This document shows, one piece after another, positions 3,858 through 60,250 of a stretch of DNA of 64,000 nucleotides. Both the position numbers and the translations under genes were made by a program. This DNA comes from Bacteroidales bacterium (lineage in GTDB: Bacteria; Bacteroidota; Bacteroidia; Bacteroidales; UBA10428), in assembly GCA_016938235.1 (NCBI GenBank), contig JAFGVA010000159.1, positions 1,296-65,295 on the forward strand, written 5' to 3'. Below the pieces are notes generated by a model. That model saw only the letters and a list, made by a program, of their open reading frames with translations. It was not told the DNA's origin and made no database searches. Positions within the stretch are counted from its first letter, which is position 1. Every line of letters starts with the position of its first letter.

Positions 3858-4853
3858 ATGATAATTGAAACAAGAGCCTTTGCAAGGGCAGGTTTATTGG
3901 GCAACCCTTCCGATGGATATTTTGGGAAAACCATTTCAGTTTCGGTCAGAAATTTTGGTGCACGAATCCTGATTTATGAATCACCCGAACTTGTAATTGA
4001 GGAGCAGGAAGTTGATAAAAATGAATACAGAAATATGTACCAACTGGTCGATTCTGTGAAACAAACCGGTTATTATGGAGGTTCCCGTCTTGTAAAAGCT
4101 GCAATAGTAAAGTTCTGGCAATACTGTGAAGAAAATGGGATAAAATTTGAAAACAAAAATTTCACCATACGGTATCAGACTTCTATACCCAGGCAGGTTG
4201 GCCTCGCAGGTTCAAGCGCTATAGTAACAGCAGCTTTTAAAGCCTTATTAAAATTCTATCAGATTGACATACCTAAACATATACTTGCAACATTAATTTT
4301 AAAAGCTGAGACAGAAGAACTAAATATCAATGCCGGCTTACAAGACAGAGTGATACAGGTATATGAGGGTTGTGTGTTTATGGACTTTGAAAAGAAGCAT
4401 CTCATCAAAAACGGTTTTGGTAAATATGAATCATTAAAAGCAGAAAATTTGCCTAATTTGTACCTTGCCTACAAAACCGAATTAAGTAAGGTTTCCGGTA
4501 CCGTTTTAAATAATATTAAAGAGGGCTTCAACAGTGGCGATAAACTGGTTATTGAAACCCTGGCAGAAATAGCTGATTGTGCCGAAGAAGGTAAAAAAGC
4601 AATTCAGGAGAAAAATTTTGGCAGATTAAATGATCTGATTAACCTGAATTTCGATTTAAGGAAAAAAATAATGAACATATCTGATAGCAACATAGAACTT
4701 GTAGAAACGGCCAGGAAGTGCGGCGCTTCAGCAAAGTTTTCAGGCTCAGGAGGTGCTATTATAGGTACATTCGAAGACGATGAAATGCTGAGGAAGCTTA
4801 TTGTTGAACTCAGAAATATTAATGCAAGAGTAATAAAACCTTATATCATATAA
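3858..4853 (+). CDS. GHMP-family sugar kinase, glucuronokinase-like
   Basis: GHMP phosphate-binding motif PRQVGLAGSSAIVTA. The N-terminus RAFARAGLLGNPSDGYFGKTIS resembles the plant glucuronokinase N-terminus (recalled from memory, not searched). Its stop is 2 nt before the galU start. Confidence 0.7.
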   Translation: MIIETRAFARAGLLGNPSDGYFGKTISVSVRNFGARILIYESPELVIEEQEVDKNEYRNMYQLVDSVKQTGYYGGSRLVKAAIVKFWQYCEENGIKFENKNFTIRYQTSIPRQVGLAGSSAIVTAAFKALLKFYQIDIPKHILATLILKAETEELNINAGLQDRVIQVYEGCVFMDFEKKHLIKNGFGKYESLKAENLPNLYLAYKTELSKVSGTVLNNIKEGFNSGDKLVIETLAEIADCAEEGKKAIQEKNFGRLNDLINLNFDLRKKIMNISDSNIELVETARKCGASAKFSGSGGAIIGTFEDDEMLRKLIVELRNINARVIKPYII

Positions 4854-4855
4854 AA

Positions 4856-5722
4856 ATGGTTAAAAAAGCAGTTATTCCGGCAGCAGGATTTGGAACCAGA
4901 TTTCTGCCTGCTACAAAAGCCCAACCGAAAGAAATGTTGCCTATTATTGACACCCCTGTAATTCAATACGTAGTTCAGGAGGCTGTTGATTCAGGAATTG
5001 AAGACATATTGATAATTTCAGGAAAGGGAAAACGTTCAATCGAAGACCATTTCGACAGGAATTTTGAACTTGAGTCGCGCATTGTTGAGAAAGAAGAGGA
5101 AGCGCTCTACAACCAGCTCCGGCATATAGAAAATATGGCGAATATTCATTATGTCCGCCAAAAAGAACTTAATGGTTTAGGCGATGCAATTTATCATGCC
5201 CGGTTTCATTGTGGAAATGAGCCCTTTGCTGTTCTTTTGGGAGATACAATTTTGAACTCTGTTATTCCGGTTACACAGCAGATAATTGATGCCTATGAAC
5301 AATACGGTCACACTGTTATTGCTGTTGAAGAAGTGCCTTACGATATTGTTAACAGGTACGGAATTGTAGGTGGTGATAGTATGAGTGAAAGAGTTCTTCG
5401 GTTAACCGAAATGGTTGAAAAACCCGAAGTTGGAAAAGCGCCATCGAACCTGGCCATTGCAGGCCGGTATATTCTTACACCCGAAATATTTTCTGCGCTT
5501 GAACAAACACAAAGAGGAAAAGGGAATGAAATTCAGCTTACCGATGCATTACGGATTGTTCTGAAGCAGGAAGATATCATGGCCACAATTATTGAGGGCA
5601 AGCGTTACGATATCGGTAATAAGATCGATTTCCTGAAAACCACGGTTGAATTTGCCTTAAAAAGAAAAGAATTTGCTAAACCCTTTGCCGAGTTTTTAAA
5701 GGAAATAGTTAAAGATCTTTAA
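4856..5722 (+). CDS. galU: UTP--glucose-1-phosphate uridylyltransferase
   Basis: N-terminal KAVIPAAGFGTRFLPATKAQPKEMLPI and the later YVRQKELNGLGDAI and VEKP motifs are classic GalU. Length 288 aa. Confidence 0.9.
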   Translation: MVKKAVIPAAGFGTRFLPATKAQPKEMLPIIDTPVIQYVVQEAVDSGIEDILIISGKGKRSIEDHFDRNFELESRIVEKEEEALYNQLRHIENMANIHYVRQKELNGLGDAIYHARFHCGNEPFAVLLGDTILNSVIPVTQQIIDAYEQYGHTVIAVEEVPYDIVNRYGIVGGDSMSERVLRLTEMVEKPEVGKAPSNLAIAGRYILTPEIFSALEQTQRGKGNEIQLTDALRIVLKQEDIMATIIEGKRYDIGNKIDFLKTTVEFALKRKEFAKPFAEFLKEIVKDL

Positions 5723-5766: not shown

Positions 5767-6106
5767 AATTAGTTACAATTACATAACTATAGAAACTCCT
5801 GATACCAAAATTTTTATACTGGACCGCTGAAACGCGTTCCCTTTCTATAATTTACTAAATAAATATAAAATCAATCCTAAGTTACTTATCCTGAGTTGAT
5901 ATAGATCAATCAATAAAAATTGTTATTTGAACTAAAAACAGATTTTATTGATAAAGTTTTATTTGTTTTTTATATAACAAAATTTAACTTGCATCATTAT
6001 AAAAGGAGTTTGTATAATTATTAAGCATGTGCCATTATTAAGTTATGGGTAAGTTATTGCCAGCAACTTCTTGAATAAATTAAAATCTAATCAAACCTAA
6101 TTTACT

Positions 6107-9100
6107 ATGAAAAAATCATTTCTGATTCTTTTCCTGGCTCTCGCACTTTCTGCGATTTCCAGCCTTTCAACAAAAGCTGTTGTTGTTTTTGATGCATCAA
6201 CTTATGCTGGTTCTTTACCTGCTAATATGTCAATAGTTAATATTGAAGGAAGAGATTACCTGCAGGTAATTCTTAATGGATCTTCGCAAACCTTAATGCT
6301 TGATTCACCTGTTGATATTCCTGTTAGTATTGACCACTACCTGGGTTATTATTTTAGATATGGTTGCCATCCAGATTCTACAAATAGCGATTATCGAACC
6401 TATATTTATCTGAATGGTTCCTCGGATACTTACTTTATGGATCTATACTGTTATGAGACCTTTACTACCTTTTCTTATATCAACCAGACCGAATCTGCAT
6501 TTACAGTTTCATCTATTTCTTTTCAAGGAATTTATTCACCTACCGGAGAATATGTTTCAGGCGATACCATTTTGTTTAATCAAATTAGGACTTACGAGAA
6601 ATATCATGAGGAACCTTTGAGAATCATGAGCCCTATTTCTGAAAAAACTTCTTCAATTACAATAGATGGAGTTGGTAGTGAGACTGATTACTCTTCGTCA
6701 GAATTATTATTAGAATATTTCAGAAGCAGTGGATGGGATGCTAGCGCAGCTGATTTTTCGGGAAGCTTTAAACTAACTTACGACTGGGATAATCTATACC
6801 TGTTTGCTGACATTTCTGATGACATTGCTGTTAATTATGATGGATCTGGTGATGTATGGTCTTACGACAATGTTGAGATCTATTTAGATATGGACACTAC
6901 AATTACAAATCAGGGTAAATATATCGGAGACGAACGTCAACTAAGATACAATAGAGGCTATGATTATTATACTGATCCAGCACCCAGAAATGGTGTAAGT
7001 CTTGAGAATTTTGTGCAGGCAGACGGTAGCGGCAGCTGGCAATTAGAGGTTGCAATACCCTGGCTGGCATTTCTCCCTGAAGGTACCTTGCATGAAGATA
7101 TTTTTGATTCAATAGATATTAATGCCATTGGGTTTGATATTCATTTTGCTGATAATGATTCAGATTATCGGGATGCCCAACTTGCATGGGATGCTGATGT
7201 TGAGGGTTCAGGTGCTACTGAAGATAATGCCTGGAAAGACACCAGGGTCTTTGGTGTGCTGATGTTAGCTAACGAACCTACGTACGATGCTCTTCCAGTG
7301 GCCAATGCTGGTAATGATGATGTTGTAGATGAAAATACTTTGGTAACTTTGGATGGAACCAGCTCTAGCGATGCAGAAGCTGGAACTTTGAGTTATCTAT
7401 GGTTTCCGCCGGAAGGTATTACCTTATCGGATGCAACAATTGCACAACCTACTTTCGATGCTCCCGAAGTTACGGAGACAACCGATTTCTCTTTTGGTCT
7501 GATTATTAATGACGGAGTACATGATTCACCTATCGATTATGTAATTGTTACCGTAAACGATATCAGTCCCGTTGCAGATGCTGGTCCTGACCAGGTTGCT
7601 GATGATGGAGTTATAGTAACTCTTGATGGCAGTGGCTCTTACGACCCTAAAGGTGCTTCAATTAATTATAATTGGACTTCACCAGCTGGCATCACATTGT
7701 CAGATCCTACAATTGCCAAGCCCACATTTATCATGCCGAATCCGGCTGCCAGTAATGAGTATGTGTTTGGATTACAGGTTGATAACGGCTCAATATTTTC
7801 TGAATACGATTATATAACAGTAAGGCCGACTTCTGCAACAGGTCTCATATTACCAATTGAAAAGGACACTAGCTATGCTTTTGTCGGCAATATGATAACA
7901 CTTGATGGATATGAATCTGAAGCTGAATGGAGCGATATAAATATCATTACAACTCCATTTCAATCTCCTATAGGTTTTAGAGGGGCAGATGACTTGAGTG
8001 CGTATTTTCGAACATGTTTCAATGATAGAGCATTTTATGTTTTTGCTAATATAAGTGATGACACAGCGGCTTATTATGATGGAGAAAATGGTGGTTGGTG
8101 GGATTTTGATGCTTTCGAAGTTATGTTTAATCTGGATACTGTCGGAATCTATCCTGATGGCTCGTATCTGGATGATGCCATATTAATTGGTTTTAATAGG
8201 GGCTATGCTAATGTTTCTACTATCATAGTAGGTTCAAAAGTAGATGGTTATGATGATCCTGAATTAAAATTTGCACAAATCGAAAATGGAACTGGTTGGC
8301 AAATAGAAATTGAGATTCCCTGGAATTATATTTTACCATCTGGTTTAGAACCTGAAGATATTGTAAATTATGTAAATACCTTTATAGGTTTTGATATTAA
8401 GATTGACGACGCTGATACCGATGATCCATATTACCCTGGCCGTGATGCCCAACTGACATGGGATACAGATGGACTTGATGGTACCGAAGACAATGCATGG
8501 AATGATACAAGAGTATTTGGGCTTATGAAATTAATTGCAACACAGACTGCTCCAAATGCTAATGCCGGCGAAGATTTTTCAGCCTACGAAAAAGAAACAG
8601 TTCAACTCGATGGTTCTAAATCATTCGATTACCAGGGTGACGAAATTACATTCTCTTGGAGTTCGCTGGAGGGTATTACGCTATTCAACTCAAATACACC
8701 TTATCCAAGCTTTACACTTCCTGATATCACCGCTTCACCCGAGCAATATATGTTTGAACTTACTGTTTATGATGGTCTAGAGTACTCATTACCCGATACA
8801 ATAACAGTTACATCATTACTGGAATTGCCTGCAGCTAATGCCGGAGAAGATCAGATAAAAGATGATGGCGTATTAGTTACTTTAGACGGAAGTGGTTCCA
8901 GCGATCCTGATGGATTACCTTTAAATTACTATTGGATTGCACCAGATTGGATTTCCCTATCTGATAACACTGCAGAGCAACCCACTTTTACCATGCCCAA
9001 TCCTGCATTTGCTAGCGAATATATTTTCCAGTTACAGGTTGATAATGGAACTTCATACTCAGAAATTGATGAGGTTTCTATTATTCCTTCTGAAGCACTT

Positions 9101-17934: not shown

Positions 17935-18070
17935 TGTTTACCTGTAATCTTTTGCGTGAAACTCAAATTTCAAAAACAACCTGTCCTGCATAATAAATAG
18001 ATGGAAAGTGCTTTGAAATTTGTAAGTTGAACAATCCCCCCAAAGGCGGAGAGTAACATACCTGCATTTT

Positions 18071-28197: not shown

Positions 28198-28376
28198 CTG
28201 ATGCTTATGTTTGGTTTATGCAAATTTTACAAATTTCCTTCCAGAACTATTTGTAAAACTTACTGATTTGGGAAAATTATTAATTGCTATTTTATAACAA
28301 ACAGACATTAAAATTTCTTACAGGCTGCATGCTGTGCTTTTTAAAATTAAATATTTTATCAATTCAATAGAATACT

Positions 28377-28384
28377 TAAATTTG
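28377..28384 (+). promoter_or_regulatory. Bacteroidota -7 promoter box (TAnnTTTG) upstream of the tRNA-Pro leader array
   Basis: TAAATTTG is a perfect match to TAnnTTTG. It lies 17 nt before the first tRNA-like unit. Confidence 0.5.
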
Positions 28385-28401
28385 CTGTCTGATATTTTAT
28401 G

Positions 28402-28611
28402 CGGGGCATAGCGCTTCCGATAGTTATCGGGACCGGTGAGCGAGTTGAGGATGTCCCGCAGAAATTATAGAATTATTTCGACCGCAAAACGTGAAACTAA
28501 TATTTACGGGGCATAGCGCTCCCGATAGTTATCGGGACCGGTAAGTGAGTTGAGGATGTTCCGCAGACATTATAGAATTATTTCGACTGCAAAACGTGAA
28601 ACTAATATTTA
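28402..28611 (+). repeat. Two head-to-tail 105-bp units, each an anticodon-less tRNA-Pro look-alike (~57 nt) plus spacer, abutting tRNA-Pro
   Basis: Units 28402..28506 and 28507..28611 are 99/105 identical. Each starts with CGGGGCATAGCGC, the first 13 nt of the tRNA. Next comes the hairpin T(T/C)CCGAT-AGTT-ATCGGGA, then CCGGT, and later TGT(C/T)CCG, which can pair back to CGGGGCA. Confidence 0.9.
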
Positions 28612-28685
28612 CGGGGCATAGCGCAGTCCGGTAGCGCGCTACGTTCGGGACGTAGAGGTCGTGGGTTCGAATCCCGCTGCCCCGA
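28612..28685 (+). tRNA. tRNA-Pro (anticodon CGG)
   Basis: Cloverleaf folded by hand: acceptor CGGGGCA/TGCCCCG, D-stem GCGC/GCGC, anticodon stem CTACG/CGTAG with loop TTCGGGA (CGG at 28646..28648), T-arm GTGGG-TTCGAAT-CCCGC, discriminator A. CCA is not encoded. Confidence 0.9.
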
Positions 28686-28695
28686 CAAAAGAAAA

Positions 28696-28724
28696 GTCTG
28701 ACACCGAAGTGTTGGACTTTTTTT
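28696..28724 (+). terminator. Rho-independent terminator after tRNA-Pro
   Basis: GTCTGACAC-CGAA-GTGTTGGAC (9 bp including 2 G.U pairs) followed by TTTTTTT. Confidence 0.7.
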
Positions 28725-28822
28725 AGTATTTCCTCTTTTTGGTGCTTATGTGAAAATCAAATCAAATCTAATTATTGTTCTTGATATAAGCTGATCGGGT
28801 TACCTATGAAAACAAGTTTTTG

Positions 28823-46818: not shown

Positions 46819-46826
46819 TATCTTTG
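46819..46826 (+). promoter_or_regulatory. -7 promoter box (TATCTTTG) upstream of the tRNA-Cys leader array
   Basis: Perfect TAnnTTTG match, 13 nt before the first tRNA-like unit. Confidence 0.5.
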
Positions 46827-46839
46827 CAACCCGAATAAT

Positions 46840-46982
46840 GATTTCGTGTCCGCCGGTTGGCGGATAGACAGTGGTAAAAAAAATACCGGTTTCGTGTCCG
46901 CCGGTTGGCGGATAGGCAGTGGTAAAAAAATACCGGTTTCGTGTCCGCCGGTTGGCGGATAGACAGTGGTAAAAAAAATACC
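46840..46982 (+). repeat. Three head-to-tail 48/47/48-bp units, each a 5'-half tRNA-Cys look-alike, abutting tRNA-Cys
   Basis: Units are 46840..46887, 46888..46934 and 46935..46982. Consensus is GGTTTCGTG + TCCGCC-GGTT-GGCGGA + TAG(A/G)CAGTGGT + A7-8 + TACC. The first 9 nt and the TAGGCAGTGGT block are shared with the tRNA that starts at 46983. Confidence 0.9.
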
Positions 46983-47053
46983 GGTTTCGTGGCCGAGTGG
47001 CTAGGCAGTGGTCTGCAAAACCATGTACAGCGGTTCGAATCCGCTCGAAACCT
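46983..47053 (+). tRNA. tRNA-Cys (anticodon GCA)
   Basis: Acceptor GGTTTCG/CGAAACC, D-arm GCC-GAGTGGCTA-GGC, anticodon stem GTGGT/ACCAT with loop CTGCAAA (GCA at 47015..47017), T-arm AGCGG-TTCGAAT-CCGCT, discriminator T. CCA is not encoded. Confidence 0.9.
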
Positions 47054-47064
47054 CAGGCAGGAAA

Positions 47065-47091
47065 GCTCATCGAACCGATGGGCTTTTTTTT
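47065..47091 (+). terminator. Rho-independent terminator after tRNA-Cys
   Basis: GCTCATCG-AAC-CGATGGGC followed by TTTTTTTT. Confidence 0.75.
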
Positions 47092-49387: not shown

Positions 49388-52300
49388 GTGCTTAGTATAA
49401 AGAAGGAAAAGAAATATAGAACAAAACACTCATTTTCAGGACAGGTTTTACTTATCCTGTTTTTTTTATTATATGCACCTTCGGCCTTTGCCGAAAGTCC
49501 AGGTAATCCTTTACCACCGCCCGATACTTTAAAATCATCAACCCTCAGGTACCCCTTAGAATCAAAATACAACTATCCATATTCAACCTCGGGTATAGTT
49601 TCTCCGCTTATGCTGCCACCGCCCGATAATATTGAGCAAAAAGTTGTTTACGATCCTGAAACAAACTCATATATTCTAAGCGAAAAAATTGGCCAGATTA
49701 ATTACAGGCCACCTTCTAGTATGAGTTTCGAGGATTATAACAAATATCAGTCTCAACAAATAAAATCGACCTATTGGTATGAGCGAGCCAAAGAAGAATC
49801 AGGTGCCGGACCTTCTTTTCTCAAAGGCTTGCATCTTGGAAATGAGTCAGTTGATAAACTTTTTGGCGGAGAGGGAATTACTATTACCCCCCAGGGAAGT
49901 GCAGAACTCAGATTTGGATACTCAATTACAAATAACGAAAACCCGTCAATTCCGGTAAGAAACCAAAGAAACGGATCATTCATTTTTAAAGAAAAAATTA
50001 TGATGAATGTTACCGGTAATATTGGTGATAAGATGGAAGTAGGATTAAACTACAATACCGAAGCTACCTTTGATTTTGAAAATAAAACTAAACTGGAATA
50101 TTCGGGCAAAGAAGATGAAATTATAAAAAAGATTGAAGCCGGAGATGTTTCCTTCAGTCTGCCGGGCAATTTAATAACCGGAAGTCAGAGCCTTTTTGGT
50201 ATCAAAACCGAATTACAATTTGGCCGTTTATCGGTCGCAACCGTGTTTAGCCATCAGCGAAGCGAGTCCTCCTCAATAAATGTTCAGGGCGGAGCACAGC
50301 AAACCGAATTTGAAATTGACATCGACCTGTATGATATTAACAGACACTTCTTCCTGTCTCACTTCTTTCGCGATAATTACGACAGGTGGATGAAGAATCT
50401 TCCCTATATCGAATCGCAGTTAAATATCGATGAAATTGAAGTCTGGGTTGTAAACAAACAAAACAACTTTACCGAATCGCGCGATATCGTTGCTGTTATG
50501 GACCTTGGCGAGGGTTATGGCCCACAGGGAGTATTAAACTACCAGGCAAATGGGGGCCTTTCTGTTAACACCTTCGATTATAATCAGCCGGCCAGTAACT
50601 CACTGAATAATTTGTACGCATCTTTGGCAGGCCGAGATGCTATTCGACAATTAAAACAAACAGATATAGTTTTTGCTCAGATAAATACAGGCTTATATAC
50701 CTACGCTCAGGGCAGAGATTATATTTCCCTTGAAAATGCCCGACCATTATCAACCAGAGAATATACTGTAAATAAGGAACTGGGATTTATCTCACTTAAT
50801 TCACCTCTGCGAAACGATGAAGTTCTGGCCGTTGCTTTTACCTATACATACAAAGGTAAAAAATACACAGTTGGTGAACTAACCAATTACATTAAAGCCC
50901 CCGATGCTCTAATTGTAAAATTGCTGAAAGGAACCACCCAGACTCCCAAATACAAGAACTGGGATCTTATGATGAAAAACATCTATTCCATTGGAGCATA
51001 TCAGGTTAGCAGAGATGGATTTGTTCTTGATATCATGTACAGAAACGATAAAACCGGAGTTTTTACCAACTATCTTACCGAAGAAGAGAGTGCCATACAT
51101 GAAGGTATTTACAAACAGACCCTGCTTAAAATATTAAGACTCGATAATCTGGATTACCGCAATGAAGCCTTTCCTGATGGAAAATTTGACTTTGTTGAGG
51201 GCATAACAATTAACTCAAAGAATGGCCGGATTATGTTCCCTGTTGTTGAACCCTTTGGTAGTCATTTGTACGACACCATCTCAAACTATATGGGCGTTAC
51301 AAAGGAAGAATGGCAAAAAGTTGCTCAAAAATACGTATTCCAGGAATTATACGATTCAACACAAACTAAAGCGCAACAGGTAGCCGAGAAAAATAAATTT
51401 GTTCTTAAAGGCTATTATCAATCCTCTTCAAGTTCCGACATCATGCTGAATGCTATGAACGTTCCGCGAGGTTCCGTAATTGTTATGGCCGGAGGCCGTG
51501 AACTTCAGGAAAATGTAGATTACACCGTTGACTATACCCTGGGTCGCGTAAAAATTATTAATACCGGACTTATTGAGTCCGGAACACCCATTCAGGTTAA
51601 ACTGGAAAGTAATTCCATGTTTAATATGCAGACAAAAACACTAATCGGTACCCATCTCGATTACAAATTCTCAGAAAATTTCAACTTCGGAGGTACTGTG
51701 ATGCGCCTGACCGAAAGACCGCTAACATCAAAAGTTAACATTGGTGACGAACCTATCTCCAACACCATTTGGGGTTTAAATACTTCATACAGAACAGAGT
51801 CGCAATTGCTTACTTCAATTATCGATAAGATACCTTTAATCGAGACCAAAGAACTCTCAAGCCTGACTTTCGATGGAGAGTTTGCACAACTTGTTCCCGG
51901 TCAGTCGAAAATGATTAGTAAATCGGGAATAGCTTATGTTGATGACTTTGAAGGAGCCCAAACAAAAATAGAACTGAAAAATGCTTTTAGCTGGGTACTC
52001 TGCAGCCCGCCAAAAGACTCGAGGGCAGGATCCTTTTATCTGTCAGCTGAAGATGGACTTGCCTCAGGTTATGGCCGTGCAAAACTATCCTGGTATTCCA
52101 TTGACCCGATTTTTTATGGCAATTACAAACCGGCTAATCTAAATACCGGTAGCCATTATGTTAGAAGAGTTGAGCAAAAGGAACTTTTCCCCTTTAAGGA
52201 CGAAGATATTATAGGTTTGCCAACTCCAATCAGAACCTTAAACTTAAATTACTTTCCGACAGAACGCGGTCCATATAACTTTGACCCTTCTGCCAGCGAC

Positions 52301-55300
52301 GATGGACAATTACCATTCCCTGAGGACAGGTGGGCAGGTATCATGAGAGAAATTATCATGAGCGATTTTGAAACCTCAAACATCGAATTCATTGAATTCT
52401 GGCTCATGGATCCGTTTGTTGAGCAACCATCAAGCACTGGGGGCGATTTATACTTCCACATTGGAGAAATTTCTGAAGATATTTTGCGTGATGCCCAAAA
52501 ATCATTTGAAAACGGCTTGCCTACCAGTGAGGTTATAGAAAATATTGACACAACAATTTGGGGCTTTGTTCCAACCGGGAAAGCTATAGTTACCGGTTTT
52601 GCCGGTGATGCCGTAGAACGTGAATATCAGGACATTGGTCTTGACGGACTTAATGACGAAAAAGAAAGCAGCTTTTTCCCTGACTTTGCTGATTTTGACG
52701 ATCCATCTGCTGATGATTTTGAATATTACCTGGGCTCTGATCACGACAATGCTCAACATAATATAATTCAGCGATACAAAAATTACAACGGACTCGAAGG
52801 GAACTCTCCTTCTCCCTCTGATAATTCAAATGTTTCGGAGGCATATAAAACAACCCCCGATATCGAAGATATCAACGACGACAATACTCTGAATACCTCA
52901 GAAACATACTATCAGTATAAGATTAGCCTCCGTCCTGAAGATTTTGTTGTTGGAGAAAACTTCATTATTGATCAGATTGAAGGTGAAGAAAACGACGGGA
53001 AAGTTCCTGTAATGTGGTACCAGTTCAGAATACCTATTGATGAATTTGAAAGTAAAATTGGTGAAATAGAAGATTTTAAATCCATTCGTTTCATGCGTAT
53101 CATGTTGAATGGATTTGCCGATACTACTATACTTCGTTTTGCCACGCTTGATTTAATTCGTGGAGAATGGAGAAGATACAAACAGGATTTATATACCTCG
53201 TCGCCTACTATTGCTCAGCAATACGACGAAACCAGTTTCGAAGTATCATCGGTTAATATTGAAGAAAACGGGAATAAAACTCCGGTTAACTACATTCTAC
53301 CTCCGGGAATTGACAGGGTTCAGGATCCCAGTCAACCCCAGATAAAACAATTAAATGAGCAGTCGTTAATGGTTAAAGTTTATAACCTTGAAGACAACGA
53401 TGCCCGGGCAGTTTATAAAACAACACAGCTTGATTTACGGCAGTACAAAAACCTTAAAATGTTTATACACGCCGAAAATCTGCCAAATGTACCCGAAGAC
53501 GAATTACAAGATTATGACCTGACCGCATTTATCCGATTAGGCTCCGACTACCTGAATAACTACTACGAATTTGAAATTCCATTAAAACGAACTCCTTATG
53601 GCACCTACAATCAGAATGATCCCGATGATCCGTACATAGTCTGGCCACTTGAAAACACAATGATACTGGAACTTCAGAAACTAGTTGATTTAAAGATAGA
53701 ACGTAACGAAGCCATGGAGAATGATCCAACCGGCCTGATAAACACACAGAGCATTTACGTTAAAAACGATGAGAAACTTGGTGATGAAAACTCGATATAT
53801 AATAAACTAAAAATAAAAGGTAACCCGAATCTGAGCAACATACGGCAGATTATGCTGGGAATTCGAAACCCCGGAGATGATGAGTCGCTTACCAAAAACG
53901 ATGGTGAACCGAAAACTGCTGAGATCTGGTTTAACGAATTACGGTTAACCGACTTTGACAATGAGGGAGGCTGGGCAGCCAATGGTCAGTTCCAGGCAAA
54001 ACTGGCCGATTTAGGAATTGTTAGCTTTGCAGGAGCTACAAGCAAGCCCGGATTTGGCTCAATTGAACAAACCGTTGAGCAACGCCAGCAGGAAGAAATA
54101 AACCAGGTAGATGTATCATCGAACCTCGAATTAGGTAAATTCTTTCCGGAGAAAGCAAAAGTTACCGTGCCTTTGTATATGGCCTATAGCAACACAACAA
54201 TTAACCCTGAATATTATCCAAAAGATCCGGATATTAAGTTGGCTGATGCTATTGCCATGGCAAAAACAGATGAAGAAAAACAAGCTATAAAGGATTATTC
54301 AAGAGATATAACAGAGCGTAAAAGTATCAACCTGACTAATGTAAGATGGAATAAGCAATTTGAAAAGGTAAAACTTGCTTCGCCGGGAAACCTGTCGGCA
54401 ACTGTGGGCTATTCAGAAACAAATATGTCTGACTACAGCGTTGATTATAATCGCCTGCGAAAATATGGTGCAAACCTGAATTACAACTATAACAACAGGC
54501 CGCAAACCATTACACCATTTTCGAAATGGAAGGCTGTAAGGAAACCGGCGTTCAGAATTGTGCGCGATATTAATTTCAACTACGCACCATCATCATTCTC
54601 TTTCAGCACCAAATTTGACCGCGATTACCAGACAATGAAACTGAGAAATCTTTATGACGATGCGGATGTTATTATTGACTCGACAACCAGCAAAGGATTT
54701 TACTGGGACAGAAATTATACTTTACGATGGGATTTTACCCGAAGCCTGAAGTTTAACTACAACGCAAGCAACCATGCTTTGATTGGAGAACCAACGGGCG
54801 CCTCCGACTGGTTTGAACCAAGCAACGAAGAATGGAAAGACAGTGTATGGACAAGCATAGTTACAGGCGGCAGGAACCTTCAGTTTAATCAGAAATTTGG
54901 ATTAGAATATACACTTCCTCTCAACAAAATACCAATATTAAACTGGACAAATATTCGTGCTTCATACGATGGAACATACACATGGACCAGGGGGGCTGAA
55001 CTTGCCGATAAAACTGCGGGAGTGCCAGGAAACAACATTAAAAACTCCAATTCAGTTAAATTGAATGGAAATTTTAACCTGGATAATCTTTATTCGAAGG
55101 TGGGCTATTTTAAGAAACTCGACTCGAAATATTCAAAAAAAGGCAAGAAAAACCAGGATGTCGATTACAAAACAGTTGAATATTCAAAACGGACCTTCCT
55201 GAAGAAAGACAGCCCGAAAAACATTATACATAAACTGGGTACCGAAAAAATTGAGGTTAAGGCCATTGACGACCAAGGAAAAGAAGTAAAAATAGCATAT

Positions 55301-56836
55301 ATGGTTGAAAGTGAAAATAAGGTATCTGTTGAATCTGAAGAAGATCTTACCGGCATTACCATAATTGTAACAGGTAGGGTAGAAAAAGGTCCAAATCCAT
55401 TTGTCTTCATTGGTGAAAATGCTATCAGAACGGTTTTAGGTTTTAAAAATATTAATCTTGTTTATAATCGAACAGAATCAACCATGCTCCCGGGATATAT
55501 CCCAACAACTGATATTATTGGTTTAAACCAGAGCGACTATTATGGTGCTCCGGGTATTCCATTTATTCTGGGCTGGCAGGACGAAGATATTTTATATACT
55601 GCGAGAAATAATGAATGGCTCACTCAATACGAATATTTCAGCCAGCCAACAATTTTTGCAGTAAACGAATCTTTCAATTTCAGGTCTTCCTATGAGCCTT
55701 TTGACGGACTGAGAATTGATTTCTCCGGATTAAGAACACACTCGCATAATACAGAACAAAATTATTACCCTATGATGGAGAATAGCCGCGATTCCATTAC
55801 TAATAAATATAGGGGAGGAACATTCTCAATATCCGCAATTACATTGTTTACGGCTTTTGAAAACTTCTCAAAAGATAATAACTGGAGCTCCGAAGCTTAT
55901 GAAAAATTAAAGTCGAACCGAAAAATTATTGCCGGTAGATTAAACAGATTAAAGACCGAAGAGATTAAAGATTATCACGACGGACTTGCACACAGCAGAT
56001 ATGATAAATATTATGCCGATGGATACAATGAAAGTTCAAGCGAAGTTTTAATGTACTCCTTCCTGTCGGCATATACAGGAAAAAGCCCCTGGAATATGGC
56101 CCTTGAGCAGTTCCCCTGGTCGGTTGCCCCAAACTGGAAAGTAACTTTTGATGGATTATCCGATTTAGACTTCGTCCAGAAGTTTGTAAAAAATCTTACC
56201 TTGACGCACTCATACAAATCGCTTTATAATATTAACGCCTACACAACCAATGTAAACTACTATGAAAGTGAGCAGGAAGGCTTATTTACAGGTAAAGATG
56301 CCCGGGGTTTGGTGCGCGACATACAGTCGAATATGCTGGCACTTTACCAGCCAAATTCCATATCGATTAACGAACAACTTAACCCGCTAATCAGTTTCGA
56401 TATGACCTGGCATAACAGTTTGCTTACAAAGTTCGAAATCAGTAAATCGCGAATGATTTCGTTAAGTATGAGTAATAACCAGCTTACCGAAACAAGAAAC
56501 AATGATCTCGTTTTTGGTGCCGGATACAAGTTTAAAGATGTTCCGTTAAACATAACCACAGGTGGTGGTTCCAGAACAATTAAAAGCGACCTCAATATCA
56601 GATTCGATCTCTCCGTAAGGGACAATACAACTATACTTCGATCACTTGCTGATTACTCAGACGACATCACAACGGGTGCCAGAAGATTTGCTGTGGATAT
56701 GACTGCCGACTACGTTTTAAGTCAAAGAGTAAATATGCAGGTTTATATTCGCAGGGATGTAAACGACCCCTATGTTTCCAACTACTATAAAAATTCTGAA
56801 ACTGAATTCGGATTCAGTCTGAGGATGTCGCTGTAA
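49388..56836 (+). CDS. sprA: T9SS translocon protein SprA (Sov family)
   Basis: 2482 aa with a signal-like FSGQVLLILFFLLYAPSAFA and a beta-rich composition ending in an aromatic-rich barrel-like tail. The ruvA-sprA-gcvH neighbourhood is the usual one in Bacteroidota as I recall. GTG start at 49388. Confidence 0.8.
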   Translation: MLSIKKEKKYRTKHSFSGQVLLILFFLLYAPSAFAESPGNPLPPPDTLKSSTLRYPLESKYNYPYSTSGIVSPLMLPPPDNIEQKVVYDPETNSYILSEKIGQINYRPPSSMSFEDYNKYQSQQIKSTYWYERAKEESGAGPSFLKGLHLGNESVDKLFGGEGITITPQGSAELRFGYSITNNENPSIPVRNQRNGSFIFKEKIMMNVTGNIGDKMEVGLNYNTEATFDFENKTKLEYSGKEDEIIKKIEAGDVSFSLPGNLITGSQSLFGIKTELQFGRLSVATVFSHQRSESSSINVQGGAQQTEFEIDIDLYDINRHFFLSHFFRDNYDRWMKNLPYIESQLNIDEIEVWVVNKQNNFTESRDIVAVMDLGEGYGPQGVLNYQANGGLSVNTFDYNQPASNSLNNLYASLAGRDAIRQLKQTDIVFAQINTGLYTYAQGRDYISLENARPLSTREYTVNKELGFISLNSPLRNDEVLAVAFTYTYKGKKYTVGELTNYIKAPDALIVKLLKGTTQTPKYKNWDLMMKNIYSIGAYQVSRDGFVLDIMYRNDKTGVFTNYLTEEESAIHEGIYKQTLLKILRLDNLDYRNEAFPDGKFDFVEGITINSKNGRIMFPVVEPFGSHLYDTISNYMGVTKEEWQKVAQKYVFQELYDSTQTKAQQVAEKNKFVLKGYYQSSSSSDIMLNAMNVPRGSVIVMAGGRELQENVDYTVDYTLGRVKIINTGLIESGTPIQVKLESNSMFNMQTKTLIGTHLDYKFSENFNFGGTVMRLTERPLTSKVNIGDEPISNTIWGLNTSYRTESQLLTSIIDKIPLIETKELSSLTFDGEFAQLVPGQSKMISKSGIAYVDDFEGAQTKIELKNAFSWVLCSPPKDSRAGSFYLSAEDGLASGYGRAKLSWYSIDPIFYGNYKPANLNTGSHYVRRVEQKELFPFKDEDIIGLPTPIRTLNLNYFPTERGPYNFDPSASDDGQLPFPEDRWAGIMREIIMSDFETSNIEFIEFWLMDPFVEQPSSTGGDLYFHIGEISEDILRDAQKSFENGLPTSEVIENIDTTIWGFVPTGKAIVTGFAGDAVEREYQDIGLDGLNDEKESSFFPDFADFDDPSADDFEYYLGSDHDNAQHNIIQRYKNYNGLEGNSPSPSDNSNVSEAYKTTPDIEDINDDNTLNTSETYYQYKISLRPEDFVVGENFIIDQIEGEENDGKVPVMWYQFRIPIDEFESKIGEIEDFKSIRFMRIMLNGFADTTILRFATLDLIRGEWRRYKQDLYTSSPTIAQQYDETSFEVSSVNIEENGNKTPVNYILPPGIDRVQDPSQPQIKQLNEQSLMVKVYNLEDNDARAVYKTTQLDLRQYKNLKMFIHAENLPNVPEDELQDYDLTAFIRLGSDYLNNYYEFEIPLKRTPYGTYNQNDPDDPYIVWPLENTMILELQKLVDLKIERNEAMENDPTGLINTQSIYVKNDEKLGDENSIYNKLKIKGNPNLSNIRQIMLGIRNPGDDESLTKNDGEPKTAEIWFNELRLTDFDNEGGWAANGQFQAKLADLGIVSFAGATSKPGFGSIEQTVEQRQQEEINQVDVSSNLELGKFFPEKAKVTVPLYMAYSNTTINPEYYPKDPDIKLADAIAMAKTDEEKQAIKDYSRDITERKSINLTNVRWNKQFEKVKLASPGNLSATVGYSETNMSDYSVDYNRLRKYGANLNYNYNNRPQTITPFSKWKAVRKPAFRIVRDINFNYAPSSFSFSTKFDRDYQTMKLRNLYDDADVIIDSTTSKGFYWDRNYTLRWDFTRSLKFNYNASNHALIGEPTGASDWFEPSNEEWKDSVWTSIVTGGRNLQFNQKFGLEYTLPLNKIPILNWTNIRASYDGTYTWTRGAELADKTAGVPGNNIKNSNSVKLNGNFNLDNLYSKVGYFKKLDSKYSKKGKKNQDVDYKTVEYSKRTFLKKDSPKNIIHKLGTEKIEVKAIDDQGKEVKIAYMVESENKVSVESEEDLTGITIIVTGRVEKGPNPFVFIGENAIRTVLGFKNINLVYNRTESTMLPGYIPTTDIIGLNQSDYYGAPGIPFILGWQDEDILYTARNNEWLTQYEYFSQPTIFAVNESFNFRSSYEPFDGLRIDFSGLRTHSHNTEQNYYPMMENSRDSITNKYRGGTFSISAITLFTAFENFSKDNNWSSEAYEKLKSNRKIIAGRLNRLKTEEIKDYHDGLAHSRYDKYYADGYNESSSEVLMYSFLSAYTGKSPWNMALEQFPWSVAPNWKVTFDGLSDLDFVQKFVKNLTLTHSYKSLYNINAYTTNVNYYESEQEGLFTGKDARGLVRDIQSNMLALYQPNSISINEQLNPLISFDMTWHNSLLTKFEISKSRMISLSMSNNQLTETRNNDLVFGAGYKFKDVPLNITTGGGSRTIKSDLNIRFDLSVRDNTTILRSLADYSDDITTGARRFAVDMTADYVLSQRVNMQVYIRRDVNDPYVSNYYKNSETEFGFSLRMSL

Positions 56837-58115: not shown

Positions 58116-59666
58116 TAACAATTAGTGCGGTAATAAATTCCATTTTGATATTAGCGGTGCAAGTTTACTATTTTGGATTTCCTTGGTAGGCGATCTAAAC
58201 ACAAAGGTTTCTTTGGTCAGATTGTCTTGTATGTGCGTTTCAGTAATGTTCCAAACTAAAAACCGGATTTCACGCAATGATAGCTTTGTAGTCAATTCCA
58301 AGTATTTTTCAGCTATTAGTGCCACAAAACAAATTAGTACATGGGCTTTTATTGCTTCGTGTTTTTGATGGTATATTGGCCTGGTTTGCAAATCAAACTT
58401 GCTCATTCTGAAAGATTGCTCAACGCGCCAAAGCTGGTGATAGCGGTCAATGACCTTCTCGTTGGATAATTGCTGTTCGTTCAAATCGGTACAATATCCC
58501 TTAATGCCCAGCAATAACCTCCTTTTTTCAATCAACACAGTATTTAACTCTATTTTCTCTTTGGTAACCTTCCGGATAAATCGGGTTTTAACTTTCAGTT
58601 CCTGTTTTGCTACCAGCTCCTCGGCTTTTAGTATGAGTTTGTTTAGCTCGTTCAATTCTTTTTTATACCTCTTTAAGGAAAAATCGCATACCAAATCGCC
58701 ATGCTTTGATGGGAAGCGAGCCATTCCCCCGTTTTTCCCGTTCAATGTAGAATGTATCTGTTTTACTAATCCAAGAGTAGCATTTGGTAGCCGGGCGCCC
58801 ACAATGTACGATAGTTCCTTTTTCCTGAGTTCAGCGAGCCTTTCTTCATCGAGCATTGCGGCATCGGCCACAATAACCGGTTTTGTCTGGGGATGTGCTG
58901 AAATAAACGTTTCAAGCACTGGCAGCATGGTTTTACCTTCAAATGTATTGCCCGCAAATATCTGGTACGACAATGGAAAACCCGATTGGGTAACAAGCAA
59001 ACCGATAACAATCTGCGGCTGCTGCGATTTGTTGTCTTTTGAAAACCCTTGGATTTTAAACTCATCAGCCTTAAAAGACTCAAAATACAGCGTGGTAACA
59101 TCGTACAAAACAAAATAGAAAGGCTCGTTGAACTTTTGCTGTGCTACATTGTAGGCACATTGCTCAATATCTGCCTTATAAATTGTTAATTCAGGAATTT
59201 TACGGTAGATACGCTGCGAATATTTGATGCCAAAATAATGTTGCAACAGTTCTATTGAGCGATATTTTGAAGCAGGTTCAACAAGCCGCATGATGGCCAA
59301 ATCAATCAGTAAGCGTGGCAGGTAGTTTAAACTACATTCTTCGATACATTTCATGAAAAACTGATAAGCAAAATGGTGGGTTACTCCAATACACTCGCCC
59401 CTGTCAACAACCATAAGCTTCTGCTTTTGGACAGGGAATAACGATAACTGAGGGGTGTTATCTTCAATCCAATCAAGCGCCTTTCGTTGCAAAACAGATA
59501 ACTCAATATCGTCTTTTGCACTACCAATATGTTTTAACACCATTGACTTATGGCCAATATACCGTACAACTTGAATTGCAGTTGAGCCCGATTTGGTTTT
59601 AACTTTTCGAATCGAATACATACCCCAAAATTATGCGTTAGTGCGGTAAATACGCACTAATTTTAA
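58116..59666 (-). mobile_element. IS1634-family-like insertion sequence (~1.55 kb), apparently intact
   Basis: Single transposase ORF. A 10-bp perfect terminal inverted core AATTAGTGCG lies at 58120..58129 and, inverted, at 59653..59662 (12/14 over the extended ends). The transposase stop codon lies inside the left IR. No target-site duplication could be resolved, so the ends are approximate. Confidence 0.7.
58122..59621 (-). CDS. IS1634-family DDE transposase
   Basis: N-terminus MYSIRKVKTKSGSTAIQVV matches the usual IS1634-family start. DDE-region motifs are VLYDVTTLYFES, VIVADAAMLDE and YHQLWRVEQSFRMSK. Confidence 0.8.
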   Translation of the reverse strand: MYSIRKVKTKSGSTAIQVVRYIGHKSMVLKHIGSAKDDIELSVLQRKALDWIEDNTPQLSLFPVQKQKLMVVDRGECIGVTHHFAYQFFMKCIEECSLNYLPRLLIDLAIMRLVEPASKYRSIELLQHYFGIKYSQRIYRKIPELTIYKADIEQCAYNVAQQKFNEPFYFVLYDVTTLYFESFKADEFKIQGFSKDNKSQQPQIVIGLLVTQSGFPLSYQIFAGNTFEGKTMLPVLETFISAHPQTKPVIVADAAMLDEERLAELRKKELSYIVGARLPNATLGLVKQIHSTLNGKNGGMARFPSKHGDLVCDFSLKRYKKELNELNKLILKAEELVAKQELKVKTRFIRKVTKEKIELNTVLIEKRRLLLGIKGYCTDLNEQQLSNEKVIDRYHQLWRVEQSFRMSKFDLQTRPIYHQKHEAIKAHVLICFVALIAEKYLELTTKLSLREIRFLVWNITETHIQDNLTKETFVFRSPTKEIQNSKLAPLISKWNLLPH

Positions 59667-59752: not shown

Positions 59753-59995
59753 ATGAAGCACAGCTTTATTCAGTATCTACCCTTATTGTTAACATTATTA
59801 AGCAATGAAGTATGCTCACATGAAACTAATACAACGTTCAACAGAATAACTGTAAAGGGCGGCTTGACTCAATCTACAGGTACATTTATATTACAAGATG
59901 AAGCGGGTTTTATTTGGTTAGCAACCCATATAGATTTTGTTGCAGCGCTCAGAGTAAAGAACATAAGTTGTATACATAGTTTTGGTTTTAACTAA
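59753..59995 (+). pseudogene. N-terminal fragment of a two-component 'regulator propeller' sensor (HTCS-like), truncated after ~58 codons of recognisable sequence
   Basis: Signal/TM MKHSFIQYLPLLLTLLSNEVCS, then FNRITVKGGLTQSTGTFILQDEAGFIWLAT, which matches the first blade motif of Reg_prop sensors (F..L....GL......I.QD..GF.W..T). Similarity ends near 59926 and the frame stops at 59995. Confidence 0.6.
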
Positions 59996-60025
59996 AAAAG
60001 CCTCCTGAATGTTCAGAAGGCTTTT
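59994..60025 (-). terminator. Rho-independent terminator after tRNA-Met (hairpin usable on both strands)
   Basis: The minus strand reads AAAAGCCTTCTGAACATTCAGGAGGCTTTTTTAG immediately 3' of the tRNA. One C/A mismatch in the stem. Confidence 0.7.
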
Positions 60026-60031
60026 ACTTAG

Positions 60032-60104
<73 letters not shown>

Positions 60105-60150
60105 ATATATTTTAAATGTTTCATTTCTCTTTAACCGAACTATTTAATTT

Positions 60151-60202
60151 TAGGACTCGTCCTACGAGCTTCTCCCGATGTATATCGGGACTCTACTCCG
60201 CA
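60151..60202 (-). repeat. Single 52-nt 5'-half tRNA-Met look-alike upstream of tRNA-Met
   Basis: The minus strand reads TGCGGAGTAGAG + TCCCGAT-ATAC-ATCGGGA + GA + AGCTCGT + AGGA-CGAG-TCCT + A. It shares TGCGG(G/A)GTAGAG and AGCTCGT with the tRNA located 46 nt downstream. Confidence 0.85.
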
Positions 60203-60242: not shown

Positions 60243-60250
60243 CAAATATA
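60243..60250 (-). promoter_or_regulatory. -7 promoter box (TATATTTG on the minus strand) upstream of the tRNA-Met leader
   Basis: Perfect TAnnTTTG match, 40 nt upstream of the tRNA-like unit. No hairpin + T-run lies between it and the tRNA. Confidence 0.45.

Follow-up and report, generated by a model that had tools for sequence, protein, structure and literature searches.

Hairpin-bearing partial tRNA copies in the leaders of tRNA genes in Bacteroidota

RNA modules that derive from tRNA, or are shaped like it, are found within longer transcripts in a number of settings. The t-elements of plant mitochondria, the mascRNA of MALAT1 and the bacterial YrlA Y RNAs all keep a minihelix of acceptor stem and T-arm that is read by RNase P and RNase Z, and in YrlA another helix replaces the anticodon arm. 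The tyrT-tyrV locus of E. coli K-12 carries three repeats spaced by 178 bp, of which the last overlaps tyrV by approximately its final 19 nt; the annotation of rttR covers these repeats, which are thought to come from unequal recombination. Here we describe structured leaders that lie upstream of tRNA genes in a stretch of 64,000 nt of DNA (henceforth the window) from a metagenome-assembled Bacteroidales genome (assembly GCA_016938235.1, contig JAFGVA010000159.1). Each leader consists of one or more units that repeat the 5′ part of the adjacent tRNA and carry a short hairpin in place of a tRNA loop. The feature is widespread, and apparently undescribed.

Tandem arrays of hairpin repeats are themselves well known. 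In CRISPR arrays and the antitoxin repeats of type III ToxI systems a single promoter serves the array, which is processed to units. Short genome-specific palindromes that come and go are exemplified by the REP, BIME and REPIN elements (mobilised by RAYT) and by the Rickettsia palindromic elements; they frequently occur nested or in pairs and can yield hairpin transcripts, and REPs are found as hundreds of scattered extragenic copies. By the principle of external guide sequences of Forster and Altman, a strand that is paired with a separate 3′ acceptor-type strand becomes a substrate for RNase P.

Leader units before three tRNA genes

Three tRNA genes are present in the 64 kb analyzed, those for Pro(CGG), Cys(GCA) and an initiator-type Met(CAT), all found by both ARAGORN and Rfam (Table 1). 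Immediately before tRNA-Pro, placed at 28612-28685/6 on the forward strand, are two head-to-tail units of 105 bp in register with the gene. Their coordinates, their hairpins and the 13-nt opening were all reproduced as given in the original prediction, made from the sequence of the window, and its claim that the design recurs at the other two tRNA genes is also borne out, with three units before tRNA-Cys and one before tRNA-Met. Over the Pro array Tandem Repeats Finder gives a period of 105 with 2.1 copies and a score of 404 (28402-28624). The two units are mismatched at 6 of 105 positions (15 T/C, 37 G/A, 40 C/T, 54 C/T, 62 A/C and 82 C/T), comprising five transitions and one transversion. 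Both open with CGGGGCATAGCGC, exactly nucleotides 1-13 of the tRNA. Where the tRNA itself has AGT the units have a 7-bp hairpin, and this is followed by CCGGT, a divergent stretch, and an end that reads TGTCCCG in unit 1 and TGTTCCG in unit 2.

The Cys units are shorter, and Tandem Repeats Finder detects a 48-bp period over 46842-46995. Each comprises tRNA nucleotides 1-9, a hairpin, the sequence TAGRCAGTGGT that matches tRNA nucleotides 20-30, and a run of A at the place of the anticodon loop; unit 1 begins with GA rather than GG. The Met unit runs in the order TGCGGAGTAGAG (tRNA nucleotides 1-12 with one change), hairpin, GAAGCTCGT, a small hairpin CTCGT-AGG-ACGAG and an A/T-rich spacer. The Pro and Met leaders share one stem, TCCCGAT/ATCGGGA, despite belonging to different tRNAs. 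This hairpin pattern occurs three times in the 64 kb against 0.10 expected, each time in a tRNA leader. The Cys stem has three exact matches in the window, all in the Cys array, and a one-mismatch match at 18035 (0.05 expected) forms no hairpin. No open reading frame (ORF) lies between the copies of the Pro or Cys units, and the units give no tRNA match with ARAGORN or Rfam even at E ≤ 10, only the three true tRNAs being called.

The original prediction also held that the ends of each unit could pair to close an acceptor-like stem of 7 bp. This stands for the Pro units, in which both TGTCCCG and TGTTCCG can pair with the opening strand CGGGGCA at 7 of 7 positions with G•U pairs counted. It does not hold generally. 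Among 81 units the 5′ strand is complementary to its own spacer at a mean of 5.36 of 7 positions, compared with 5.27 in shuffled sequences, and this want of enrichment led us to reject pseudo-acceptor closure as a general trait. It is absent from the Cys unit of the window (4/7) and reaches only 6/7 in the Met unit. The picture of a closed mini-tRNA thus describes the Pro units, along with two tRNA-Pro(GGG) leaders (L286 and L303; L numbers denote individual loci throughout), but not the family overall.

All three arrays have an upstream −7 box of the Bacteroidota type, from which the copies should be transcribed as a leader. With the box upstream, and the sole terminator-like site between 28250 and 28800 placed after the tRNA, the Pro array and its tRNA look like one transcript, as had been proposed. 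The motif TAnnTTTG by itself is no commoner in this A+T-rich window than chance predicts (84 occurrences against 86), so we assign the promoter by its position and by the orthologous boxes in L379, L381 and L138. The boxes of the window are orthologous to boxes lying 12-18 nt before plain tRNA genes in relatives; for tRNA-Pro these are TAAATTTG in L379 and TATATTTG in L381, at 12-13 nt. Matches to TTGAGG/TAGAAT within the units from a sigma-70 scan were set aside, such a scan not being applicable to Bacteroidota.

Table 1. Positions of the tRNA genes, leader units and associated signals in the window.
Feature	Position	Strand	Basis
−7 box TAAATTTG, Bacteroidota type, 17 nt upstream of Pro unit 1	28377..28384	+	
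Pro unit 1: copy of tRNA nt 1-13, hairpin, D-loop remnant CCGGT, acceptor-3′-like TGTCCCG, A/T-rich spacer	28402..28506	+	
Hairpin TTCCGAT-AGTT-ATCGGGA, one U•G pair, D-loop position, Pro unit 1	28415..28432	+	
Pro unit 2, identical to unit 1 at 99/105 positions	28507..28611	+	
Hairpin TCCCGAT-AGTT-ATCGGGA, D-loop position, Pro unit 2	28520..28537	+	
tRNA-Pro(CGG), CCA not encoded	28612..28686	+	ARAGORN; Rfam, 67.4 bits
Intrinsic-terminator-like hairpin and T-run 3′ of tRNA-Pro, sole such site in 28250-28800	28689..28724	+	
−7 box TATCTTTG upstream of Cys array; ortholog of the L138 box 18 nt before tRNA-Cys	46819..46826	+	
Cys array, three tandem units (48, 47, 48 nt)	46840..46982	+	
Hairpin TCCGCC-GGTT-GGCGGA, Cys unit 1	46849..46864	+	
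Hairpin TCCGCC-GGTT-GGCGGA, Cys unit 2	46897..46912	+	
Hairpin TCCGCC-GGTT-GGCGGA, Cys unit 3	46944..46959	+	
tRNA-Cys(GCA)	46983..47054	+	ARAGORN, Rfam
Terminator-like hairpin and T-run 3′ of tRNA-Cys	47064..47091	+	by eye from sequence
−7 box TATATTTG, 40 nt upstream of Met unit	60243..60250	-	
Met unit, single, 98 nt	60105..60202	-	
Hairpin TCCCGAT-ATAC-ATCGGGA, D-loop position, Met unit; stem shared with Pro units	60173..60190	-	
Initiator-type tRNA-Met(CAT): 1:72 mismatch, GGG/CCC in anticodon stem	60031..60104	-	ARAGORN, Rfam
Terminator-like hairpin and T-run 3′ of tRNA-Met	59994..60021	-	by eye from sequence

The neighbors of the three tRNAs are ordinary housekeeping genes, for PriA, IspH, Cmk, a GH31 hydrolase, a GlnS/GltX-type synthetase, FolB, PdxA and RuvA, together with one for a protein that has no Pfam match. 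There are no cas genes among the flanking genes (two to four immediate neighbors of each tRNA), no toxin gene among the immediate neighbors of the arrays and no RAYT gene among the neighbors checked. An ORF with a DDE transposase domain (PF01609) occupies 58122-59621 on the reverse strand, approximately 400 nt downstream of the initiator tRNA gene, and an ORF of 2482 amino acids follows ruvA at 49388-56836 on the forward strand.

Distribution of the leaders and conservation of the hairpin

How widespread are such leaders? We scanned one genome for each of 185,579 species for the first 11 nt of the initiator tRNA, followed by 41-101 nt of any sequence and the true tRNA start. The design recurs far outside the window: there are 111 matching loci, nearly all in Bacteroidota, among Cyclobacteriaceae, Saprospiraceae, Chitinophagales, Crocinitomicaceae, Pedobacter, Chryseolinea, Bacteroidales and Flavobacteriales. 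Carriers include cultured isolates and closed chromosomes, which rules out an assembly artefact. Among the cultured ones are Chryseolinea serpens DSM 24574 (L173), Dawidia soli PWU37 (L166), Pedobacter cryotolerans AR-2-6 (L179), Pedobacter sp. Leaf170 (L136), Chryseolinea lacunae Jin1 (L183) and Saccharicrinis sp. FJH54 (L145). Within Bacteroidota, two or three full tandem genes apart, all partial initiator-tRNA copies have one or more G+C hairpins that stand in for a tRNA loop or arm. The hairpin lies in the D-loop in about 66 cases and takes the place of nucleotides 38-47, after CTCATA, in about 38; in nine the anticodon arm is exchanged for CCCGTACGGG. A possible signature of these leader copies (T28) was rejected, as the copy simply matches its own tRNA.

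The second scan, of metagenomes, used the pattern TCCCGAT-N4-ATCGGGA followed by a T-loop 71-131 nt further on, and found at least 120 loci where fewer than one is expected by chance. The following counts apply to the matches listed. An ARAGORN-called tRNA lies downstream in 116 of 125, covering about 30 anticodon types, and in 83 of these 116 the sequence just before the hairpin repeats the start of that tRNA exactly or nearly so. The junctions are exact. In 49 cases the copy ends at nucleotide 13-14 and similarity resumes at 17-18, so that the hairpin replaces nucleotides 14-17 of the D-loop; in 22 it ends at 26-28 and resumes at 44-46, the hairpin replacing exactly the 17-nt anticodon arm; and in seven, all class II tRNAs, it ends at nucleotide 21. 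The other 33 mostly have two hairpins, nested hairpins or decayed copies. More rarely the hairpin replaces part of the T-loop or anticodon loop, and a few metagenome leaders (L284/L363 and L324) have a hairpin with no recognisable tRNA copy. The base of the hairpin is conserved as UCC...GGA, and the remainder of each copy is truncated or decayed to an A/U-rich spacer that reaches the true tRNA. Since 11 of 102 units sit between clustered tRNAs, the idea that units are limited to the first tRNA of an operon was rejected.

The loops of the two main hairpin positions differ in character. At the D-position they are mostly AGCT whichever tRNA is concerned, giving a perfect palindrome of 18 nt, and we therefore rejected the notion that they are retained local D-loops. 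At the anticodon position the loops resemble the local anticodon loop (permutation P = 0.001, with cases that are not independent). As to the promoter, 37 of 81 metagenome cases have a perfect TAnnTTTG in the 60 nt before the copy, usually at a distance of 9-17 nt, compared with only 3 of 81 that have one in the spacer before the tRNA; for the initiator-tRNA leaders the box is upstream of the first unit in 44 of 109 and inside the leader in two. The hairpin is followed by CCGGT, GGTAGAGC or the like instead of a run of U, which excludes a terminator or attenuator.

The pairing of the hairpin is conserved through compensatory changes. Among 50 distinct D-position hairpins of initiator-tRNA leaders there are 348 Watson-Crick pairs, seven G•U pairs and about two true mismatches, with loops of 2-8 nt. 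In an anchored alignment of 49 sequences 98% of cells are paired, and five of the seven pairs have changed on both sides. The covariation score is 0.433 compared with 0.095 in shuffles, none of 500 shuffles scoring as high, and slid controls were all low. The outer two pairs (U-A and C-G) are invariant at the D-position. The anticodon-position hairpin covaries too, with 5′ strands TCCGCC, TCCGTC, TCCGCT, TCCGGC, TCAGGC and TTCTTC. In Crocinitomicaceae/Fluviicola the orthologous initiator-tRNA leader, recognisable by a common spacer motif GAAATA..GCAATAAAGATATATT, shows compensatory changes of the stem, for example from TCCGCC/GGCGGA to TCAGCC/GGCTGA.

Across about 1.6 Mb of related loci nearly all copies of the hairpin lie within tRNA-like sequence. 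At two places unrelated to tRNA (L357:1714-1731 and L309:832-849) it caps longer terminator-like hairpins, where it behaves like a portable stabilising module. In L145 (7044-7061) and L175 (2360-2377) it occupies the T-loop position of 3′ partial initiator-tRNA copies, beyond the true gene and its terminator. A scan of viral contigs for the bare hairpin gave mostly chance or terminator-like matches, of which only L048 and L236 were informative. L048, a phage or prophage contig, has at 4826-4912 a stand-alone tRNA-Met-like sequence with TCCCGATAGCTATCGGGA in its D-loop. The CAT anticodon arm and the T-arm of this sequence are intact but its acceptor stem is imperfect, and it is followed by a terminator of its own and by no normal tRNA. 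The sequence AAAAAA-TCCCGATATATATCGGGA-TTAATTATTTAATTA is near-identical in L004, L012, L015, L020, L022, L028 and about 15 further IMG/VR loci, and looks like a bidirectional terminator of one phage group.

Several other features of the leaders may be noted. GTTCTT, often as AAGTTCTTAAAA, is found in the spacers 11-20 nt before the true tRNA 17 times against 1.4 expected (in L259, L271, L274, L275, L315, L341, L354, L364, L366 and many initiator-tRNA leaders), and could be a decayed T-loop or a processing signal. An analogous leader of the initiator tRNA occurs in Oscillospiraceae (Dysosmobacter, Bengtsoniella and others; L122, L142, L143, L181, L193, L198 and L224). Here nucleotides 1-43 are intact, including the CAU anticodon arm, and are followed by a different hairpin, TTTCCGG-GGCAGTA-CCGGAAA, and CCGCGG; this may be a convergent design in a second phylum. 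In a Saprospiraceae genome the matched initiator-tRNA start is followed at a short distance by a group I intron (L134:1901-2087; Rfam RF00028, 61 bits). The intron probably interrupts the tRNA gene, which would account for the lack of an ARAGORN call there, and this gene also has a hairpin-bearing leader.

Origin and possible roles of the units

The arrays prove labile. Conservation of the units at orthologous loci, whose absence the original prediction had named beforehand as refuting it, fails for both the Pro and the Cys array. L381 has a tRNA-Pro(CGG) identical to that of the window and L379 a close one; each adjoins a homologue of the gene neighboring it in the window, and each has the −7 box directly before the tRNA and no units. 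L138, from a related Bacteroidales, has a very similar initiator-tRNA leader, but its orthologous tRNA-Cys locus has no units. Array size ranges from one to at least 12 near-identical units. The largest array, before an elongator tRNA-Met (L261:3480-4680), has at least 12 tandem units of 97 nt that make a leader of about 1.1 kb, each with one hairpin in the D-loop (CCGAT-AGCG-ATCGG) and another inside the anticodon loop (TCCCGAT-GGCT-ATCGGGA). The copies can be arranged in a series of decay, from full-length and hairpin-bearing (L210) through those that keep the T-arm, those cut after the D-arm and those with a degenerate 5′ strand to leaders with a hairpin only. In L210 two full-length initiator-tRNA-like genes of 98 nt lie downstream of the true gene (5837-5934 and 6026-6123), the former with hairpins in the D-loop and variable region; both are possibly expressed as tRNA-like RNAs. 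In L381 the unit-free tRNA-Pro(CGG) is directly followed by a gene for a tyrosine integrase (928-2136), suggesting that an element has integrated at the 3′ end of the tRNA.

The null model of the original prediction, that of decaying duplicates struck by a palindrome, survives in modified form. In keeping with a pseudogene each Pro unit opens with an exact, in-register copy of tRNA nucleotides 1-13. Yet the model must explain a hairpin in every partial copy in Bacteroidota, and plain neutral decay does not accord with a new G+C hairpin in each, its pairing kept through double changes. The reading we favor, at somewhat short of an even chance, is that the units are fast-evolving tandem duplicates of the 5′ part of the tRNA gene, transcribed as a leader, each locked by a hairpin that is maintained at the level of RNA. 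The units would arise as the promoter-proximal part of the gene undergoes local tandem duplication and recombines unequally, and they would be transcribed only because they lie behind its strong promoter. The precursor would then contain several identical 5′ acceptor and D strands for a single 3′ acceptor strand. The hairpin would fold first, fixing the surplus copy in a stable shape that lacks an anticodon and is not that of tRNA, so that the copy could neither mature to tRNA nor trap the inner strands of the real one. Because it locks surplus copies, the hairpin would be the selected part. RNase P would strip off the whole leader, possibly stepwise, and the 5′ strand of each copy might pair with the 3′ strand of the tRNA in the manner of an internal guide. 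The arrays themselves would be largely tolerated by-products of fast turnover that at most slow or tune maturation. Folding predictions make the leader copy and the true 5′ strand nearly iso-energetic partners for the 3′ acceptor strand; these predictions also favor the leader copy strongly, but that preference stems artificially from the multiloop energy term and we place no weight on it.

A number of points weigh against this interpretation. When the hairpin is replaced by the native segment, partition-function calculations predict hardly any change in strand competition, so that a locking effect does not emerge in silico. Harmful surplus copies should disappear rapidly by deletion between direct repeats, yet throughout a family-level clade initiator-tRNA leaders have persisted and their spacer motif is conserved, which speaks for a positive function. 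The occurrence of hairpin-only leaders suggests that the hairpin has a role of its own. The interpretation explains neither how TCCCGAT/ATCGGGA reaches the leaders of many tRNAs nor why the anticodon-position hairpins have loops like the local ones. Co-transcription and processing of array and tRNA are read from sequence motifs. The covariation set was preselected for at least six contiguous pairs, its species are related and its counts are of non-independent events; moreover self-correction of a perfect palindrome by intrastrand template switching can mimic covariation without selection. The excess of G•U pairs over mismatches (seven against two) argues for constraint on the RNA, though on nine events in all, a small number.

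If the leader is instead a functional RNA, its units would be selected as decoys, sponges or timers, either as small RNAs with a 5′-strand tRNA 'seed' and a protective 3′ hairpin or by competing in cis for the 3′ acceptor strand. In either case a tRNA-binding enzyme or a tRNA-targeting nuclease would be titrated, or the rate of maturation by RNase P set, with an effect that scales with unit number. Upkeep of the hairpin at the RNA level, the leaders that are hairpin only and the maintenance of the orthologous initiator-tRNA leader across Crocinitomicaceae/Fluviicola all agree with this, as does a 5′ copy that is exact or near-exact in 83 of the 116 listed matches and tracks its own tRNA at variable sites. 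Arrays of many copies served by a strong promoter are reminiscent of sponge or antitoxin arrays, the pairing of leader copy with 3′ strand is predicted to be competitive, and the Oscillospiraceae offer an analogous initiator-tRNA leader. Yet the Pro and Cys arrays are absent from relatives, the 5′ strands are decayed in the Met unit and Cys unit 1 of the window and in L305 and L359, and most units lack what known tRNA-binding proteins read, namely the acceptor helix, the anticodon and the T-arm. Closure of an acceptor-like stem shows no enrichment, and the initiator-tRNA form occurs in only about 100 of the scanned species genomes under the pattern used. We regard such a role as possible but on the doubtful side. 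Equally speculative is a broader proposal, a phylum-wide layer of tRNA control in Bacteroidota, in which hairpin-marked copies of the 5′ strand are read by a dedicated factor or guide stepwise cleavage by RNase P, small RNAs mimicking the 5′ half time maturation or titrate an enzyme or toxin, and the cassette is copied between tRNA genes by a structure-guided mechanism.

The sharing of one stem by the Pro and Met leaders of a single genome, and across about 30 tRNA types, would follow if the hairpin were a selfish or mutational DNA element. This would be a palindromic cassette that spreads by template switching or gene conversion, with conserved tRNA segments as the homology, targets the hairpin loops of redundant tRNA-like DNA and promotes local duplication, with pairing kept by self-correction of the palindrome and no role for the RNA. 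Such a cassette accords with D-position loops that are mostly AGCT, making a perfect 18-nt palindrome whatever the local D-loop, and with junctions that fall at the ends of conserved tRNA flanks. The same may be said of hairpins that are nested or partly duplicated (L185, L269, L273, L267 and L285), that sit at terminator-like apexes (L357 and L309) or in phage contigs, and of a unit load that is very uneven between related genomes. But the left flank of the hairpin has no fixed target sequence. Loops of 2-8 nt and G•U pairs on the sense strand only indicate a constraint on RNA rather than DNA, simple insertion of a cassette would not predict locally derived loops at the anticodon position, and, unlike REP-type elements, the hairpin is essentially absent from other intergenic DNA. 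We therefore consider this origin unlikely, while far from negligible. The 7-4-7 palindrome could also be a DNA operator, bound by a dimeric protein that regulates or blocks tRNA transcription just past the promoter. The outer half-site TCC...GGA is conserved, both halves change together and the site lies 20-50 bp downstream of the predicted start, but the spacing of the conserved halves ranges from about 1 to at least 11 nt, which effectively excludes an operator; asymmetry of the G•U type is tolerated and the long arrays place many sites far from the promoter, making the idea highly improbable. Still less credible are scars of integrative elements, that is attachment-site (att) duplications from phages or conjugative elements with tRNA genes as their targets. 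These genes are common integration sites, an integrase gene adjoins tRNA-Pro in L381, and the phage contig L048 has a hairpin-bearing tRNA-Met-like sequence. However, it is the 5′ part of the tRNA that is repeated and not the 3′ end, a period of 48-105 bp leaves no room for an element, the copies lie between promoter and gene, and L381 with its integrase has no units.

The tRNA genes are among the best studied of all, and yet many of those in a major phylum of gut, soil and water carry a structured leader derived from themselves. If it is true that the copies act on maturation, they provide a new handle on tRNA supply in a phylum whose promoters and translation initiation are unusual. Should they be selfish or tolerated, they are a clean natural case of interference with RNA folding that is neutralised by a portable hairpin, and point to a mechanism that places palindromes precisely at tRNA loops. 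There is also a hazard for annotation. ARAGORN labels the two L210 copies tRNA-Leu(CAG) and tRNA-Met(CAT), and regularly spaced hairpin arrays can pass for CRISPRs.

Relationship to known systems

We find no described bacterial family of tRNA leaders to which these belong, in agreement with the original prediction. Rfam 15, at gathering and permissive thresholds, has no family for the leaders of the window or of eight other loci, the best stray match being Acido-1 at E = 3, and nothing relevant on such leaders was found in the literature searched, by hairpin sequence as well, or in papers on Bacteroidota transcriptomes. The feature is filed with the tRNA-derived repeats and tRNA pseudo-copies.

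Each of the known classes differs in some essential respect. In contrast to CRISPR and ToxI arrays the 'spacers' are identical and derived from tRNA (the sequences between the hairpins of the Pro units being near-identical, 99/105), and the array ends in an in-register tRNA gene. The dispersal of REP and BIME elements is not seen, the three occurrences of the hairpin pattern in 64 kb all being in tRNA leaders; unlike REPs the hairpin is of 16-18 nt, is found almost only at loop or arm sites of tRNA-like sequence and has no fixed flanking tetranucleotide. Most units lack the T-arm and 3′ acceptor strand, in contrast to t-elements, mascRNA and YrlA, and here the copy is adjacent to the tRNA and tandemly repeated. 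The likeness to a guide sequence is that the leader copy could use the 3′ half of the true tRNA, but in cis and naturally. Such pairing is possible through the identity of the copy, and is predicted to be competitive in 48 precursors.

The closest precedent that we have checked is the tyrT-tyrV locus (RttR/rtT RNA, tpr). As in the leaders described here, its units are tandem and in register and contain a terminal piece of the tRNA; at tyrT-tyrV they are co-transcribed with it and a small RNA is made. Strain SK1144 lacks the K-12 arrangement of tyrT repeats. Unlike the units before the Bacteroidota tRNA genes, however, those of tyrT-tyrV repeat the 3′ end and lie downstream, have no hairpin substituted for a loop, and are confined to one locus in one lineage.

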